The translations under genes and the position numbers were made by a program. Shown in pieces: positions 33,287 to 42,289 of a stretch of 64,000 nucleotides of DNA. The number at the start of each line of letters is the position of its first letter. Position 1 is the first letter of the stretch. Below the pieces are notes generated by a model. That model was not told the DNA's origin and did no database searches. It saw only the letters and a program-made list of their open reading frames with translations. This DNA is from Escherichia phage ES19, in sequence record MN508616.2; one strand, 5' to 3'.

Positions 33287-33703
33287 TTAAATGTAAATAT
33301 TTTTGCCGTAATACTTATACCAGTGTGGCTTCATTAAAATTTTTTCATCGAGTCGTTGTTGACTCAACTTAATAGCTGATTTGCATGGATTATAATCATT
33401 TTTCCATTCTACTGGAATATCGCTGATGTCAGGAACTTCAGTATCTTTTATACTGAACCCGCGTTTTAAGCATTCCGTTATAATGTCCGATTGACGCTTT
33501 CGCAAAAATTCTAACTTATCGTAAAAGAAAGTAACATGACCAGAACCTAAAATAAATTTAGAAGATATTTTAAAATCTTTAACGCGCTTACCGTTTGCCA
33601 CATGCTTACGAACTATACCAAAAACACGCGGCAATTCACGGTATTCTGCGATTAAATGTTGATCAGCAAGTTCAGATACTAAAGTCAAATTAATACGAGT
33701 CAT
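33287..33703 (-). CDS. denV: endonuclease V (pyrimidine-dimer DNA glycosylase)
   Basis: 138 aa; [17 protein letters not shown] ... [10 protein letters not shown] matches T4 DenV as recalled. Confidence 0.9.
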
Positions 33704-33728
33704 TTTATCCCTCCAAGTAACTGTGAAT

Positions 33729-33757
33729 ATACTATCACAATTCTAGGAGAAAGTAAA
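33729..33757 (-). promoter_or_regulatory. sigma70-type early promoter for denV (TTTACT-17-TAGTAT)
   Basis: Lies in the 59-bp gap between the e stop and denV start. Confidence 0.45.
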
Positions 33758-33762
33758 TAGCT

Positions 33763-34293
<531 letters not shown>

Positions 34294-35578: not shown

Positions 35579-35973
35579 CGTGATTCCTTAACAAATTTCA
35601 TAATTTCATCAAATTCATACGCAGCAAGTTTAAGCTGATGTTCCTTTTTAATCTTTTTACACTGTGCTTTCCAATCACGTACGCGTTTACGATAATGCCT
35701 TCCTTGATACCAGTATCCTACCCAATTTACGGGTACTAATAAAAGTGGAACTATTAATGGAAGAATTAGCATTAACACAAGTATTTCGCCAGAATCAATA
35801 TCAGTCATAACATCTAAAACACCTCCAATAATCAATAGAATTACAAATGATATGAGTATAACAGGACCTATTAACACATCAGTAGAAATTATCTGACGCT
35901 TTAATTCATACTTCAACGGTTTACTTGGAAGGTATAGTGATGGCTTTGACATATTCTCTACATTCCTTAACAA
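35560..35973 (-). CDS. membrane protein (e.x cluster)
   Basis: 137 aa, two predicted transmembrane segments. Confidence 0.45.
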   Translation of the reverse strand: MLRNVENMSKPSLYLPSKPLKYELKRQIISTDVLIGPVILISFVILLIIGGVLDVMTDIDSGEILVLMLILPLIVPLLLVPVNWVGYWYQGRHYRKRVRDWKAQCKKIKKEHQLKLAAYEFDEIMKFVKESRCKSQN

Positions 35974-36529
35974 ATTTTTCTAGTAATAAATCACTTTCAA
36001 AATTGGGATTTTCTACAAATTTATCAAAAAGATCATCAACAATAGTTAAGATATTCTTTTTACTAAGAATACGTTTATTTTCATGCTTCGTTTCAGAATC
36101 AACTATAAGAGTAAAGAAATATTTCTTGCCCTGAAATTTTACAGTAGTATCAATATAAAATAAATTTGACTTTTGTAAATTACGTTTAAACCATGCGTCA
36201 CTTAAACTATAAACACCGAGATAATCAAAATCGTCGTTTAAATAACAAACCGTCCATTCAGGAGAAATGAAATCAGTAAATTCAACATCAAAATCACACG
36301 TCAATGAATGAATTGATTCAATACTGTTAATGAGTATTCCAGGACGTATTAAAGACTTTTTACCTCTAGAAAATCTTCCGGAAAGGCTTTCATCAGTTTC
36401 ATATGAAGACCCCCAATAGTAATTACGTCCTTCTGCCATGCGTTTAAGAGCATTTAGTAATTGGTCTGGAACATCAACCTGTCTTTGAAACTCTTCAAAC
36501 ATTGAATTGAAATCACTTTGCATTTTCAT
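35921..36529 (-). CDS. hypothetical protein (e.x cluster)
   Basis: 202-aa ORF; start uncertain. Confidence 0.45.
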   Translation of the reverse strand: MKMQSDFNSMFEEFQRQVDVPDQLLNALKRMAEGRNYYWGSSYETDESLSGRFSRGKKSLIRPGILINSIESIHSLTCDFDVEFTDFISPEWTVCYLNDDFDYLGVYSLSDAWFKRNLQKSNLFYIDTTVKFQGKKYFFTLIVDSETKHENKRILSKKNILTIVDDLFDKFVENPNFESDLLLEKFVKECREYVKAITIPSK

Positions 36530-36571: not shown

Positions 36572-37165
36572 TTATTTCAGAGAATTAATATATTCCTGAA
36601 CATCGGCAGAGGTAGTTTCAACCCCAGAAATATTACCATTAAAGGTTTCAACTCGAGCAAGAGTATCTTCAATATCAACCTTAGTCAGTGCTGCAATTTC
36701 AACTACATCATCAGCAGTACTAATTCCAAGGGCATTCGCTGCACGAGTTTCACGGATATATTCCAATTTAACCGCAAGTTCTTGACGAGCATCATCTAAC
36801 TCAACTACTTTCTTGGCGATTTCAATTCGCATTTCAGCATAACCGTCAGCCTTAGTAGTCAACTGCTCAGCTGTTCGACGATATAGTAAACCGAGTTTAG
36901 CATGCATTGTTACATCTTGGCCTTCGGAAAGAAGTTTACGAATTTCACGCTCTTTTGATTCGGCCTGTCGATTCTTTTCGATAACAAGTTCACGAATACG
37001 TTTTTCTTCGTTAATAGATTTAACAGAAGCAGTTTTTAGATCTTTAATTTTATCAAGTAGTTTTGCTGCTGCAGCAGTATACTGTTCTTCGACAGATAGA
37101 TTTTTAGCCATAGCAGAACCAAGTTTAGTGCGAATAAACTCAACAATTTTCTTCAGTGTGTTCAT
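36572..37165 (-). CDS. coiled-coil protein (e.x cluster)
   Basis: 197 aa, largely helical/charged. Confidence 0.45.
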
Positions 37166-37266
37166 AGTATTTCCTTAGGTTAATTGAGATTTAAAATCCG
37201 TAGGAGTATAATACTCTATCGTCAAATTATAGGCTCATAATATCTCAATCATGAGCCTGCGTAAAC

Positions 37267-37530
37267 TTATTTCATATTATTGAAATATTCTTCTGCGATT
37301 TCGTCGTTATCATGGTAAACTTTAGAAGACAGTTTAACATAACCTTCTGCTGTGAACATATTAATCACAACTTTTACAGTATACCACTGACCGTCTTCAT
37401 TACCCATTACTGCGTAAGTTTCAAACATCGGATGATCAGGACCGATAACTTTAATATCATTCACTGTACGACCGAAATCTTCTGAAACGCATTTCATAAA
37501 GAAGTTGAACAGTTCGCCGTAATTATCCAT
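37267..37530 (-). CDS. hypothetical protein
   Basis: 87 aa from ATG at 37530 with RBS GGAGAATGAA; the track start 37650 lies upstream of the promoter. Confidence 0.45.
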   Translation of the reverse strand: MDNYGELFNFFMKCVSEDFGRTVNDIKVIGPDHPMFETYAVMGNEDGQWYTVKVVINMFTAEGYVKLSSKVYHDNDEIAEEYFNNMK

Positions 37531-37573
37531 TTCATTCTCCAAGTTGTTTTCTGTATCAGTAGTTGATAGTTGT

Positions 37574-37602
37574 ATAGTACCATGGAAGAACAGAGATGTA
37601 AA
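37574..37602 (-). promoter_or_regulatory. sigma70-type early promoter (TTTACA-17-TACTAT)
   Basis: Same conserved module as 22040..22068 and 23479..23507. Confidence 0.5.
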
Positions 37603-37732
37603 CAGTTTTGTGAAAAAATTTTTAGGGAATTCTAGGGCAGGGATGGGCAATTAAAGGATAGGATAATATATTATAAAGGGTATAAACTAAATGATGCCTA
37701 GAGAGGTCCAGAAAGGCCTAGATACCAAAAAG

Positions 37733-37751
37733 CCCTATCATTTAGATAGGG
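37733..37751 (-). terminator. stem-loop ccctatc-attta-gataggg with U-tract
   Basis: Preceded on plus by aaaaag; directly after the stop of 37760..38323. Confidence 0.5.
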
Positions 37752-37759
37752 ATTTAAAA

Positions 37760-38323
37760 TTATTTACCTAGTTTACTTATTATAGCTTCTGCAGCAGCTT
37801 TTAGCTTAGATGCAGTGTTAATACGATTTTTAATTTCAGTATACGCATCGCCAAGAACATCAAGGCTATCAGAATAAACACTTACACTATTGCGTTCGCT
37901 ATTTGAAATAGAACCTTTAGTTTTGCGGTCAAAATCGGTGTACACGTCTTGAAGATCGCGGGCTGCCTTCTTTGCATCATCCAATGCATCAAGAGCTTTA
38001 TTCAAAGCATTAACGTATTTTTTAGTGTCGAACATATTCTTAGAAATTTTAACAGGTGCGCGTTCAGGAGTAGCTAACACAGATTTAGGAACCTGAGCGC
38101 CAGATGCCAATTTCTTAGAAATTTTGAAAAATGCTTTATTGAATTTATTTTCTTGACTCATTGTAAAAGAACTATTATCGATGTTGTACATTTCAATAGC
38201 TTTAGCTTTCCACTTAAGAAAATCGCCGCGGTCTTTTGGGTCCAATTGGAAGAATACTTTAGTAAGATCTGCTTCAGATGGTAATTTTGCTGCTTCGGTT
38301 AAAAATTCGGCATAGGTTTTCAT
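37760..38323 (-). CDS. internal-protein-like protein with capsid-targeting-sequence-like N-terminus
   Basis: 187 aa; N-terminus MKTYAEFLTE-A resembles the T4 IP leader MKTYQEFIAE with a gp21-protease-type L-x-E site; possible late-promoter-like AATAAATA upstream. Confidence 0.45.
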   Translation of the reverse strand: MKTYAEFLTEAAKLPSEADLTKVFFQLDPKDRGDFLKWKAKAIEMYNIDNSSFTMSQENKFNKAFFKISKKLASGAQVPKSVLATPERAPVKISKNMFDTKKYVNALNKALDALDDAKKAARDLQDVYTDFDRKTKGSISNSERNSVSVYSDSLDVLGDAYTEIKNRINTASKLKAAAEAIISKLGK

Positions 38324-38417
38324 TTAAAATCCTTGAAATAATTTATCGGTTGGTTATTAATTATTTATTACTTTGTTACTATCCGTAACAGCGTTATCCG
38401 AGTGATTCAAACTAAAA

Positions 38418-38441
38418 AGCCCCAACCTTTCGGTCGGGGCT
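38418..38441 (-). terminator. rho-independent terminator (10-bp stem, GAAA loop, U-tract); copy A of a 31-bp direct repeat
   Basis: aaaaagccccaacctttcggtcggggctaag at 38414..38444, identical to 38971..39001. Confidence 0.6.
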
Positions 38442-38448
38442 AAGAATG

Positions 38449-38922
38449 TCATTTGATTTGTTTAGCAGACCAAATGCGGTCTTTAATAATTTTTTGGATG
38501 TCTTCAACATACTCAAGAGAGTGAACATGTGGATTATCTTTGAAACTATAAGCACGGGCTAACTTTTGGCCTTCGGTTTTGATTACTAAAAGCTCTTTAA
38601 GGATAGCTTCATATTTAGCGATAATTCCTTTAACGATATTTTTTTCTTGTGCCGCTTTAGGATCTGCTTTAGGAGCAGGTTTACCCGAAGCCTTTGCAAA
38701 AGCAGCGCCAGTAGCAACTAAACTTTTCCAGGCCATACTAACTGCATTTCCCGTAAATCCTTCCGCTTTCATGTCGCGTGCAAACTGGAATCGTGATTCA
38801 TCAGAAGCATCTTTATAGGAATATTTACCCGCGGCAATGGCAGCTTTTGCAACAGCTTGAATTTCGGTGCTAGATGCTTCATTTAACACCGCTTCATTTA
38901 AAAATTGAGTATATGATTTCAT
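38449..38922 (-). CDS. internal-protein-like protein with capsid-targeting-sequence-like N-terminus
   Basis: 157 aa from ATG at 38922 (MKSYTQFLNE-A...) with RBS AGGAAATAAG; the track ORF extends upstream through the promoter and terminator. Confidence 0.5.
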   Translation of the reverse strand: MKSYTQFLNEAVLNEASSTEIQAVAKAAIAAGKYSYKDASDESRFQFARDMKAEGFTGNAVSMAWKSLVATGAAFAKASGKPAPKADPKAAQEKNIVKGIIAKYEAILKELLVIKTEGQKLARAYSFKDNPHVHSLEYVEDIQKIIKDRIWSAKQIK

Positions 38923-38960
38923 CTTATTTCCTGTTTTAATTTGTAGATTTAATATACTAA

Positions 38961-38968
38961 TATTTATA
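38961..38968 (-). promoter_or_regulatory. T4 late promoter motif TATAAATA (minus strand)
   Basis: tatttata on plus, about 39 nt upstream of the ATG at 38922. Confidence 0.5.
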
Positions 38969-38974
38969 CCAAAA

Positions 38975-38998
38975 AGCCCCAACCTTTCGGTCGGGGCT
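38975..38998 (-). terminator. rho-independent terminator; copy B of the 31-bp direct repeat
   Basis: Identical to 38418..38441; lies downstream of the non-coding RNA-like region. Confidence 0.6.
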
Positions 38999-39000
38999 AA

Positions 39001-39300
39001 GCCTTGCGGCAACCTTGTCGGGGTTCCACCTGCTAAGGCAAGTGTTTGTACGAAACGCCGGGATTCGAACCCGGTTATTAAGTAGTTGACGCTACTCAAT
39101 ATTTTTAAAAGGCCATATCTCGACCATATCCGAACGTTCCGTCAAAAACGCTACTCGGCTTACGGCAAAGATATTTCCTCGAATCGATAATTCGGTGCGC
39201 CGTTTCTGCTGTGATAGTAAAGAGCCAGAACACAGTAAAACTGTGGGAGGAAACTATACTCCAGGGAACATCAGTCCGACGACTTACCGGTAGCGACCCG
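39001..39300 (-). ncRNA. candidate small stable RNA(s) with tRNA-like 3' domain
   Basis: About 300 nt without a credible ORF between ORF 39306..39656 and the terminator; GC-richer than surroundings; canonical T-arm CCGGG-TTCGAAT-CCCGG on minus (plus 39058..39074) with possible acceptor pairing CGGAACG/CGTTTCG but no full cloverleaf. T4 encodes two stable RNAs next to its tRNA cluster. Confidence 0.3.
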
Positions 39301-39305
39301 GTTTC

Positions 39306-39656
39306 TTAATATTCTTTTAAAGAATCAATATATTCACGGCGTTTACGCCACAAATCAATTGCTTCATACGCGGATTCAGCATTTCGAATTAGCCGGCATT
39401 TATGTAAAGACTTATGATTTTGATATTGTGTAGATAACGGAATTGTATCTAAAAGGTCTTTACGATCAAAATATTCGTAACCATCTAAACCAAATGAACG
39501 ATTTTTGAGAAATTGCCAATGACCATATTCGTTTTCGACATAAACATAATCTGCATGCTGATAAAGCAAATTAATTACACGTTCAGAAATAACAGTATCA
39601 TTATGATTAAAATAGAATGTTAAATCATGAACTACTAAATAAACATTACCTTTCAT
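39306..39656 (-). CDS. hypothetical protein co-transcribed with the tRNA cluster
   Basis: 116 aa; ATG at 39656 is 18 nt downstream of the tRNA-Arg 3' end with RBS GTGAGGAAA; no recognisable motif. Confidence 0.5.
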   Translation of the reverse strand: MKGNVYLVVHDLTFYFNHNDTVISERVINLLYQHADYVYVENEYGHWQFLKNRSFGLDGYEYFDRKDLLDTIPLSTQYQNHKSLHKCRLIRNAESAYEAIDLWRKRREYIDSLKEY

Positions 39657-39674
39657 ATTTTCCTCACTTATAAT

Positions 39675-39750
39675 TGGTCGAGGCAGTAGGGATCGAACCT
39701 ACGACCTAGGACTTAGAAGGTCCTTGCTCTTCCTTCTGAGCTATGCCCCG
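39675..39750 (-). tRNA. tRNA-Arg (anticodon UCU)
   Basis: Cloverleaf folded by hand: acceptor CGGGGCA/TGCCTCG, anticodon loop CTTCTAA, T-loop TTCGATC, encoded CCA. Confidence 0.8.
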
Positions 39751-41721: not shown

Positions 41722-41955
41722 TTATTTTTTACGAAAAATTGATTTATTTTCTGCTGCCCATTTTTCAATAACTGCAGCAGGACCAGTAACAACAATTTTA
41801 TCACCGTAATCTTCTGCGGCGAGTTGACCGAAATTATCTAATGCATCACGAAGAACTCCATGAGGCATTTCACCCATTTTATCTTTCTTGCCAGTGTAAA
41901 TAAACTCAACTTTTACATCAGCAGTTTCAGCAATAAATTCTTGGTAAGTTTTCAT
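41722..41955 (-). CDS. internal-protein-like protein with canonical capsid targeting sequence
   Basis: 77 aa from ATG at 41955: MKTYQEFIAE-TADVK, identical to the T4 IP leader as recalled; the track ORF adds four upstream codons; rest of the protein does not look like T4 IPI as recalled. Confidence 0.55.
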   Translation of the reverse strand: MKTYQEFIAETADVKVEFIYTGKKDKMGEMPHGVLRDALDNFGQLAAEDYGDKIVVTGPAAVIEKWAAENKSIFRKK

Positions 41956-42031: not shown

Positions 42032-42289
42032 TTATTTTAAATCTTCTAATCGTTTCTTCATCTTAGAACCATTTTTAGCAATTTCTCCTGCATCGGAGCA
42101 TAATGCTAAAAGTGCTTTAACTTTAGTTTGGTCTCCTTTAAAAGATGAAGGATCGACCGCAGCAGCAAGTTCTTTAATACGAGAGAAAAGACGCTCAGCT
42201 TCAGCTAAAGCCATTCCAAGCTTTACTTCCATACCGTGGGAAGATTCAGTGATAGTAGTTTTTGTAGCAAACTCTTTGAAAGTTTTCAT
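42032..42289 (-). CDS. internal-protein-like protein with capsid-targeting-sequence-like N-terminus
   Basis: 85 aa; MKTFKEFATKTTITE-SS; RBS AGGAAAA; preceded by an inverted-repeat promoter. Confidence 0.45.
   Translation of the reverse strand: MKTFKEFATKTTITESSHGMEVKLGMALAEAERLFSRIKELAAAVDPSSFKGDQTKVKALLALCSDAGEIAKNGSKMKKRLEDLK

Follow-up and report, generated by a model that had tools for sequence, protein, structure and literature searches.

What kind of protein does Escherichia phage ES19 encode between its stable RNA genes and e.8, at a locus that is empty in phage T4? The DNA analysed here, called the window, is a stretch of 64,000 nucleotides (nt) from sequence record MN508616.2, and it comes from a T4-like phage of the genus Tequatrovirus. 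It holds an open reading frame (ORF) of 187 amino acids (aa) at positions 37760-38323, which a first-pass annotation made from the letters alone had described as a gene with a leader like a capsid targeting sequence (CTS), a late promoter and a terminator of its own. The same annotation took the product to be a putative injected protein in a hotspot for exchangeable effectors. The coordinates were confirmed, and the ORF lies on the minus strand. The region from 37000 to 39700 is matched by 772 phage records and is 100% identical to Escherichia phages ES21, D5505, U115 and Paracelsus, and the 187-aa protein is orthologous to RB14ncORF136c. The product of the ORF is probably an internal head protein (Ip) of this T4-like phage that had not been labelled as one. 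Internal proteins are the route by which T4-like phages bring pre-made proteins into the cell before gene expression.

Judged by its residues, the N-terminus MKTYAEFLTE is a genuine leader of the CTS type, and its cleavage context is L-x-E. Residues 1-12 are identical at 8 of 12 positions to T4 IPIII (MKTYQEFIAEAS), whose first 11 residues are common to IPII. Amber-suppression mutagenesis of IPIII assigned residues 4 and 7 to head targeting and residues 8 and 10 to processing, and ten IPIII residues are enough to target foreign proteins into heads (reviewed in PMC9026906). The 187-aa ORF has Tyr4, Phe7, Leu8 and Glu10, which are all four of these residues, and Leu8-Thr9-Glu10 followed by Ala11 fits the (L/I)-x-E site of the prohead protease gp21, with Glu and not Asp at position 10. 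The CTS-like leader with its L-T-E context is thus borne out under the rules worked out for IPIII. Both proteins share a 10-residue leader of the form MKTY-EF-(I/L)-x-E↓A (the arrow marks the cleavage site), and LTE at residues 8-10 is the sole [LI]xE site of the 187-aa protein, just as IPIII has a single one, in its leader.

The six-frame translation of the window contains the motif K[ST][YF]x[EQ]F[LI]xE three times, against 0.003 occurrences expected from composition, and all three directly follow an initiator Met: in the 187-aa ORF, in the neighbouring 157-aa ORF and in a 77-aa ORF. Conservation tells the same story. Among 12 homologues, down to 18% identity, Glu10 is invariant, Phe7 is nearly invariant, and position 4 is Y or F. 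At nine loci from eight genera the leaders all read x-x-x-[FY]-x-[EQD]-[FI]-[LI]-x-E-[AST], and a further I-[NT]-E↓A site is frequent, as in IPI.

The signals around the gene were found as first annotated. The near-consensus late promoter is the box AATAAATA, a 7/8 match to the T4 box TATAAATA, and its 38-nt distance to the ATG is the same as that of the perfect TATAAATA box in front of the 157-aa gene. A NATAAATA box stands 25-38 nt upstream of the ATG in 9/9 homologous loci examined; it reads TATAAATA in JS09, IME08 and KMB19, while RB14, Kosakonia 305 and EcS1 have GATAAATA and Marfa has CATAAATA. T4-like phages conserve the first T of this box poorly (PMC1524935). The hairpin and U-tract are CCCTATC-TAAAT-GATAGGG and then CTTTTT. 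This hairpin is modest (-11.5 kcal/mol, z = -1.5); the D5505 annotation lists it as a terminator (ARNOLD), RB14 and RB69 conserve it, and a strong hairpin lies 3' of the stop codon in 9/9 of the homologous loci. T4 ipI, ipII and ipIII and the window's ipI-locus genes have early-promoter/stem-loop upstream regions instead. A sigma-70 promoter near the locus was also considered and rejected, as the scan scored no better than shuffled sequence.

The predicted mature protein is small and basic, with 177 aa, 19.6 kDa, an isoelectric point (pI) of 9.54, a net charge of +9 and 26 Lys. IPIII* has 183 aa, 20.4 kDa, a pI of 9.65 and a net charge of +10, so the two nearly agree in mature size, lysine content, net charge and pI. 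Each is also larger than any other CTS protein of its phage. When the whole genome of Bas37, a phage that encodes an identical protein, was scanned for CTS-type N-termini, it gave five CTS ORFs for this phage type, of which the 187-aa protein is the largest; four lie within the window. The AlphaFold2 model (mean pLDDT 78.6, with a low-confidence leader) shows a small helical N-domain, a disordered linker and a C-terminal three-helix bundle. In the alignment of 12 homologues, all invariant body residues fall in the N-domain, between residues 21 and 65 (T21, K22, R32, D34, K37, Y46, I48, A64 and F65). The linker differs in length and sequence among homologues, and the C-terminal domain is the variable part and comes in two types.

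The likeness to IPIII ends at the leader. There is no sequence or fold similarity beyond it, and BLASTP against IPIII aligns residues 1-12 only. The T4 ipIII gene lies between e and denV, whereas the 187-aa gene lies between rnaC and e.8, and ipIII has an early-promoter/stem-loop region upstream where the 187-aa gene forms a late-promoter and terminator cassette. IPIII is non-essential and inhibits the GmrSD of ECOR17 (PMC12373910), whereas the 187-aa protein was scored Essential, as described below. Sequence searches of Pfam, NCBIfam and the PDB returned only sub-threshold noise (cytochrome b562, ALIX, TraA). A fold search of BFVD with Foldseek gave matches at E <= 0.001 that were all uncharacterised proteins, none of them an annotated Ip, and three of these matches are near-identical copies or fragments of the 187-aa protein.

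It is quite likely, on strong sequence and comparative evidence, that the protein is CTS-targeted and processed by gp21. We infer its late transcription, packaging, cleavage, ejection and function as follows. The gene would be a self-contained cassette, transcribed late from its own gp55-type box AATAAATA and ending at its own hairpin terminator. MKTYAEFLTE would act as the CTS and bind the nascent scaffolding core of the prohead. The protease gp21 would then cut after Glu10 (L-T-E↓A), making Ala11 the new N-terminus (AAKLPSEADLTK). This would leave inside the head a 177-residue basic protein made of a helical N-domain, a flexible linker and a variable three-helix C-domain, and the mature protein would be expelled into the cell along with the DNA. 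The prohead core proteins, prohead protease and scaffold are bas37_0006 to bas37_0009 in the Bas37 genome and lie outside the 64-kb window.

A published transposon screen bears on function. The 187-aa protein is 100% identical to Bas37_0243 of Bas37 (KarlGJung, MZ501089; locus tags were confirmed), and the supplementary table of the HIDEN-SEQ preprint lists 1/48 TA sites hit for bas37_0243, a saturation of 0.02, scored Essential (10.1101/2025.11.20.689424). The genes around it were all scored Non-essential: the e.8 orthologue bas37_0242 with 23/23 sites hit, the 157-aa gene bas37_0244 with 29/34 and the 116-aa gene bas37_0245 with 33/38 (10.1101/2025.11.20.689424). T4 ipI (24/24), ipII (22/23) and ipIII (42/46) were Non-essential too in the same work. 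The gene bas37_0243 offers no insertions that could be followed across conditions (10.1101/2025.11.20.689424). By this score, from a method that has false positives, the 187-aa protein departs from the typical dispensability of T4 Ips on laboratory hosts.

On the reading that we prefer, though tentatively, the protein would do what IPIII does in T4: it would be a major basic core protein which aids head assembly, and it would have become indispensable where IPIII and Ip4 are both missing. In a T4 IPIII mutant, head assembly is halved, the burst is 40% and polyheads form (PMC9026906). Neither IPIII nor Ip4 is present in Bas37 or in the window phage. The gene carries one-base deletions at three different sites in G4500, OE5505 and RB69, and Ip4 is present in both G4500 and OE5505, as it is in RB14, KIT03 and T2; the survey of deletion carriers for other internal proteins covered G4500 and OE5505. 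Ip4 in these two deletion carriers and its lack in Bas37 fit redundancy among large basic Ips, with the 187-aa protein indispensable when alone. The record counts (261 for IPIII, 471 for Ip4 and 164 for the 187-aa protein) are totals, not per genome, and do not decide the question of redundancy. A bolder and rather unlikely version is that the 187-aa family is the ancestral major internal or core protein of enterobacterial T4-like phages, targeted by the CTS and processed by gp21, with an N-domain needed for prohead core assembly and a C-domain at liberty to vary, and truly essential where IPIII and Ip4 are lacking. If that were true, the dispensable anti-restriction Ips of T4 would be a special case arising from redundancy among large basic Ips.

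The locus itself differs from the known Ip loci. Read along the minus strand from high to low coordinates, the gene order agrees with T4: gene 1, 57A, 57B and two small ORFs at the ipI position, then trna.4, trna.3, trna.2, the tRNA cluster, a 116-aa ORF and the rnaD and rnaC homologues, then the 157-aa ORF, the 187-aa ORF, e.8, e.6 and e.5, and on to nudE, e and denV. In T4, e.8 comes directly after rnaC, and ipII and ipIII lie between e and denV; in the window, e (33763-34257) and denV (33287-33703) are adjacent, about 60 nt apart (33703-33763). The site of the two CTS-like ORFs is thus one that T4 leaves empty, while the ipII/ipIII slot of T4 is empty here. This e-denV slot holds ipII and ipIII in T4 and Ip4 in T2, RB14, KIT03 and OE5505, and it is empty in Bas37 as well. 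The rnaC-to-e.8 site is a probable third Ip locus, made of late-promoter/terminator cassettes and separate from the ipI and ipII/ipIII sites of T4. A 2025 paper on Ips speaks of two Ip loci (PMC12373910).

The other CTS ORFs of this phage type sit elsewhere. At the ipI locus, the 77-aa ORF (41722-41955, minus strand) begins MKTYQEFIAE↓TADVKV... and is 100% identical to Bas37_0260, which the HIDEN-SEQ preprint describes as a CTS-bearing inhibitor of McrBC of E. coli K-12, shown by knockout (10.1101/2025.11.20.689424). Next to it, an 85-aa ORF (42032-42289, minus strand) has a longer leader of the IPI type, MKTFKEFATKTTITE↓SSHG, and a near-identical protein stands at the same locus in T2. Its Bas37 counterpart is annotated ipI and has a log2 fold change (log2FC) of -2.09 in one clinical-isolate comparison. 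The fifth CTS-like ORF, outside the window, is bas37_0146 (54 aa, MKTYKEFIKE↓DMVAGDSGG..., MZ501089 93173-93337, minus strand), which adjoins the primase gene.

The 187-aa family is broad and unlabelled. The protein matches phrog_2280 with E = 2e-53, a family of unknown function, whereas the T-even Ips are annotated as internal virion proteins: PHROGs gives that label to IPI, IPII, IPIII (phrog_5341), Ip4 and both ipI-locus proteins of this phage. A search for close homologues returned only proteins at least 88% identical, plus fragments, and tblastn found the protein in 164 phage records, all at 85% identity or more and every one annotated hypothetical. An exhaustive HMMER search reached further, to a 204-aa relative that is 31% identical and has a CTS-like leader of its own. 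With this relative as query, tblastn found 350 records from phages of Escherichia, Klebsiella, Enterobacter, Yersinia, Serratia, Raoultella and Kosakonia. In at least eight genera of T4-like phages the homologues examined share one slot: the tRNA/rnaC region lies just upstream of it, and e.8 or e.6 follows downstream; the slot was checked in Tequatrovirus, Mosigvirus, Dhakavirus, Karamvirus, Kanagawavirus, Kagamiyamavirus and Marfavirus. This sets the family apart from the ipI-locus genes, which are highly polymorphic while the 187-aa family is syntenic across genera. Repoila and colleagues are said to have reported polymorphic ip genes in 1994.

The cassette also seems to have moved. RB69, a Mosigvirus, carries a cassette of the Tequatrovirus type (L008 3001-3563), promoter and terminator included, at about 95% nucleotide identity; its one-base deletion splits the gene into ORF149c and ORF148c. 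Another Mosigvirus, JS09, has a divergent allele in the same slot (L017 401-1027; 208 aa, leader MYTFNEFLAE), which is 37% identical to a distant homologue, P0013, that is itself about 30% identical to the 187-aa protein. The Tequatrovirus-type cassette in RB69 next to the divergent allele in JS09 points to lateral exchange of the cassette between genera.

How is the gene related to its 157-aa neighbour? PHROGs places the two proteins together in phrog_2280, and the AlphaFold2 models of both show a leader, a small helical domain, a linker rich in Pro, Ala and Lys and a helical C-domain. BLASTP and hhalign of the family alignments found nothing in common beyond the leader and the Pro/Ala/Lys linker. 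No relation between the two bodies appeared either in a leader-stripped hmmsearch, in global hhalign or when each predicted model was searched against BFVD with Foldseek. At the sensitivity of these sequence, profile and BFVD searches, the claim of unrelated bodies stands. The idea that one leader is shared across different cargo holds as well, yet this is textbook for T-even internal proteins and has been known of diverse injected cargo since the 1990s (PMC3012670, PMC12373910, PMC9026906). The 187-aa protein resembles the T-even Ips (Ip1, Ip2, Ip3, Ip4 and Bas37_0260) in these respects, as they share an N-terminal CTS on otherwise unrelated small basic proteins, are present or absent among close relatives and number several per genome.

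The two genes come and go in relatives, and repeats flank the 157-aa gene. A second copy of the rnaC terminator AGCCCCGACCGAAAGGTTGGGGCTTTTT follows that gene (direct repeat family D1, 93% over 40 nt), and the identical terminator copies on its two sides are 28 nt long. Four states occur: both genes (127 records), the 187-aa gene only (RB14), the 157-aa gene only (KIT03 and slur03) and neither (T4 and T2). In RB14 a single terminator copy is joined directly to the region upstream of the 187-aa gene. In T4 and T2 the terminator is joined to GGTATCTAGGCC..., which in the window follows the terminator of the 187-aa gene, and the 3' flank of that terminator, GGGCTTTTTGGTATCTAGG, is the junction common to T4 and T2. 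Because the junctions in RB14, KIT03 and T4/T2 fall at repeat copies, the insertions and deletions lie in the terminator repeats. The 187-aa gene is tied to the T4/T2 junction just by a shared 14 nt, GGGCTTTTTGGTAT, at its downstream terminator. A toxin-antitoxin-like pairing of the two genes was considered and ruled out, because RB14 carries the 187-aa gene alone and KIT03 the 157-aa gene alone.

The arrangement, which is clear for the 157-aa gene, recalls the early-promoter stem-loop (PeSL) cassettes of T4-type phages, which are described as single genes between repeated regulatory motifs, gained or lost by recombination there (Arbiol et al. 2010, PMC2839356; Comeau et al. 2014, PMC4122927). 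The PeSL unit is an early promoter with a stem-loop, whereas the repeat unit here is an intrinsic terminator and then a late promoter box. The first-pass view of a hotspot of exchangeable effectors survives in part: the genes are independently present or absent in relatives, but the 187-aa family is fixed at one slot in at least eight genera, its N-domain is conserved and an identical protein was scored Essential. Slot, N-domain and score together speak for an internal protein that is conserved and possibly morphogenetic, and less for an accessory effector that can be swapped at will.

The features of the locus are collected in the table.

Table 1. Features of the 187-aa and 157-aa cassettes, in coordinates of the window; the arrow marks predicted cleavage.
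Feature	Position	Strand	Details
Intrinsic terminator of the 187-aa cassette	37727..37751	(-)	CCCTATC-TAAAT-GATAGGG (hairpin 37751..37733) then CTTTTT
187-aa coding sequence, candidate internal head protein	37760..38323	(-)	start MKTYAEFLTEAAKLPSE...
C-terminal three-helix bundle, residues 101-186	37766..38023	(-)	confident in AlphaFold2 model
Pro/Ala/Lys-rich linker, residues 74-100, predicted disordered	38024..38104	(-)	pLDDT <50 at residues 80-90
Conserved small helical N-domain, residues 17-73	38105..38275	(-)	helices 17-26, 35-45, 55-73 (AlphaFold2)
Capsid targeting sequence MKTYAEFLTE, codons 1-10	38294..38323	(-)	predicted gp21 cleavage after Glu10 (LTE↓A)
Shine-Dalgarno AAGGA	38330..38334	(-)	6 nt before ATG; read from sequence
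Late-promoter-like box AATAAATA	38362..38369	(-)	7/8 match to T4 TATAAATA; ends 38 nt before ATG
Terminator after 157-aa gene, upstream boundary of 187-aa cassette	38418..38441	(-)	AGCCCCGACCGAAAGGTTGGGGCT + TTTTT; -20.4 kcal/mol, z = -4.8
Neighbouring 157-aa CTS ORF, equals Bas37_0244	38449..38922	(-)	MKSYTQFLNE↓AVLNE↓A
Perfect late promoter box TATAAATA of 157-aa cassette	38961..38968	(-)	ends 38 nt before its ATG
Terminator at 3' end of rnaC homologue	38975..38998	(-)	first direct-repeat copy flanking the 157-aa cassette

Several findings weigh against an internal protein with a part in head assembly. Literature searches, by locus tag and for virion proteomes of phages that carry the gene, turned up neither proteomics of virions nor N-terminal sequencing nor ejection data on the protein or its homologues. 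Searches by sequence and by fold could not match the body of the protein to IPIII or another Ip. As a bare motif AATAAATA is no commoner than expected by chance, with 6 copies in the window where composition predicts 15, and the boxes of RB14 and Marfa are variants. The gene is absent from T4, T2 and KIT03 and frameshifted in RB69, G4500 and OE5505, so any requirement for it is context-dependent at most. HIDEN-SEQ scored six known non-essential T4 genes as essential, and its main text is silent on bas37_0243 (10.1101/2025.11.20.689424). All Ips of determined function are anti-restriction proteins and none is an assembly factor (PMC12373910; 10.1101/2025.11.20.689424). The main alternative to an assembly role is a role in blocking host defence, and the two could coexist. 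The protein might then be packaged and injected for this purpose only, to block a host nuclease or first-response defence, and would score as Essential since K-12 carries that defence; we consider this possible but unlikely as the sole function. It would match what is on record for Ip1, Ip2 and Ip3, which each inhibit a different GmrSD, and for Bas37_0260, which inhibits McrBC, so that all four known cases are inhibitors of type IV restriction (PMC12373910; 10.1101/2025.11.20.689424). A variable C-terminal domain of two types is what an arms race would be expected to produce, and the gene is present or absent among close relatives. Bas37 DNA also has a sugar modification (alpha-gt plus beta-alpha-gt) that differs from that of T4, so Bas37 could be exposed to a different K-12 activity. 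Set against this, T4 and T2 grow on K-12 without the gene, and K-12 is not known to have a GmrSD. A strain-specific inhibitor would not usually be kept as this family is, which stays at one slot with its N-domain conserved in phages of Escherichia, Klebsiella, Enterobacter, Kosakonia and Yersinia. The transposon data point the same way: bas37_0260 scores as non-essential in the reference library of Bas37 but is depleted on BW25113, a contrast suggesting that the library host lacks McrBC, that is, a deltaRM strain, whereas bas37_0243 is almost without insertions even in the reference library and has none in any condition.

A different doubt concerns the score itself. The protein could be an ordinary dispensable Ip that is packaged like the others and, as with T4 ipI to ipIII, costs the phage little when lost, with an Essential score that is a method artefact or comes from dominant-negative truncated CTS fusions. 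This too seems on the unlikely side, although the hoc-to-uvsW block was likewise scored Essential in Bas37, a T4 triple mutant known as IP0 is viable (PMC9026906), and the gene has natural one-base deletions in RB69, G4500 and OE5505 and is absent from T4, T2 and KIT03. The depletion is nevertheless confined to one gene between tolerated neighbours (0242 at 23/23, 0244 at 29/34), and a monocistronic cassette ending in a terminator makes polar effects unlikely. Insertions are tolerated in the neighbouring cassette, which is built the same way. The deletions in G4500 and OE5505 sit in genomes with Ip4, and all three may be sequencing errors. It is very improbable that the protein is a cytoplasmic late protein which is not packaged at all, with an N-terminus that is CTS-like by chance or through shared ancestry of the 5' end. 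Databases do annotate it as hypothetical only, and the literature searches turned up no direct sign of it in virions, but the leader motif is about 1000-fold over chance and found at ORF starts only, the targeting and cleavage residues are the most conserved in a family whose bodies drift to about 20% identity, and ten residues of IPIII are enough to bring foreign proteins into heads (PMC9026906). The assembly, anti-defence and artefact readings overlap, so their likelihoods do not sum to one.

The HIDEN-SEQ table holds two further observations on this phage type. In Bas37, bas37_0015 to bas37_0019 (hoc, inh, a homing endonuclease, uvsW and a small ORF) form a contiguous block scored Essential, as are hoc, inh, segE and uvsW of T4. 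Phages are known to manage without these genes, so the scores suggest a locus-level effect of the method near capsid genes, which bears on the weight of any Essential score. Downstream of e.8, the orthologues of e.6 (36572-37165) and e.5 (35921-36529), both on the minus strand, are strongly depleted, with log2FC values of -6.49 (bas37_0240) and -3.62 (bas37_0239), each with q = 0, in one comparison of K-12 with a clinical isolate, probably CFT073. The preprint lists a knockout plasmid for 0240, and its main text does not discuss either gene. Both e.6 and e.5 are candidate host-range or anti-defence genes.

A few other features were seen nearby. The rnaD and rnaC homologues (about 39000-39305, minus strand) are almost identical to the T4 stable RNAs, and in most phage records this region is unannotated or called small ORFs or 'tRNA-Lys'. 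An Rfam search near the locus matched tRNAs and no other RNA family. At 37590-37600, upstream of e.8, a 10-nt stretch, TAAAACTTTT, is absent from the window; RB14, KIT03, T2 and T4 all have it, a little upstream of the e.8 early-promoter region. Two perfect TATAAATA boxes stand 13 nt apart at 34271-34291 (minus strand), just upstream of the lysozyme gene e.

Capsid targeting sequences are used to load foreign proteins into T4 capsids, and Ips are increasingly recognised as a reservoir of anti-restriction functions. What is new or unremarked here is that this family probably consists of Ips at all, that it would define a third Ip locus, that its position is conserved across genera and that an identical protein was scored Essential. 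The 187-aa family is more widely conserved than IPI, IPII or IPIII and is missing from Ip inventories. If the Essential score is an artefact, the gene would still be a good candidate for a new injected anti-defence protein of two-domain design. If the score is real, this would be the first Ip that is indispensable to a T4-like phage, and it would tie the half-understood assembly role of IPIII to a tractable system, Bas37, for which a transposon library and knockout tools exist.

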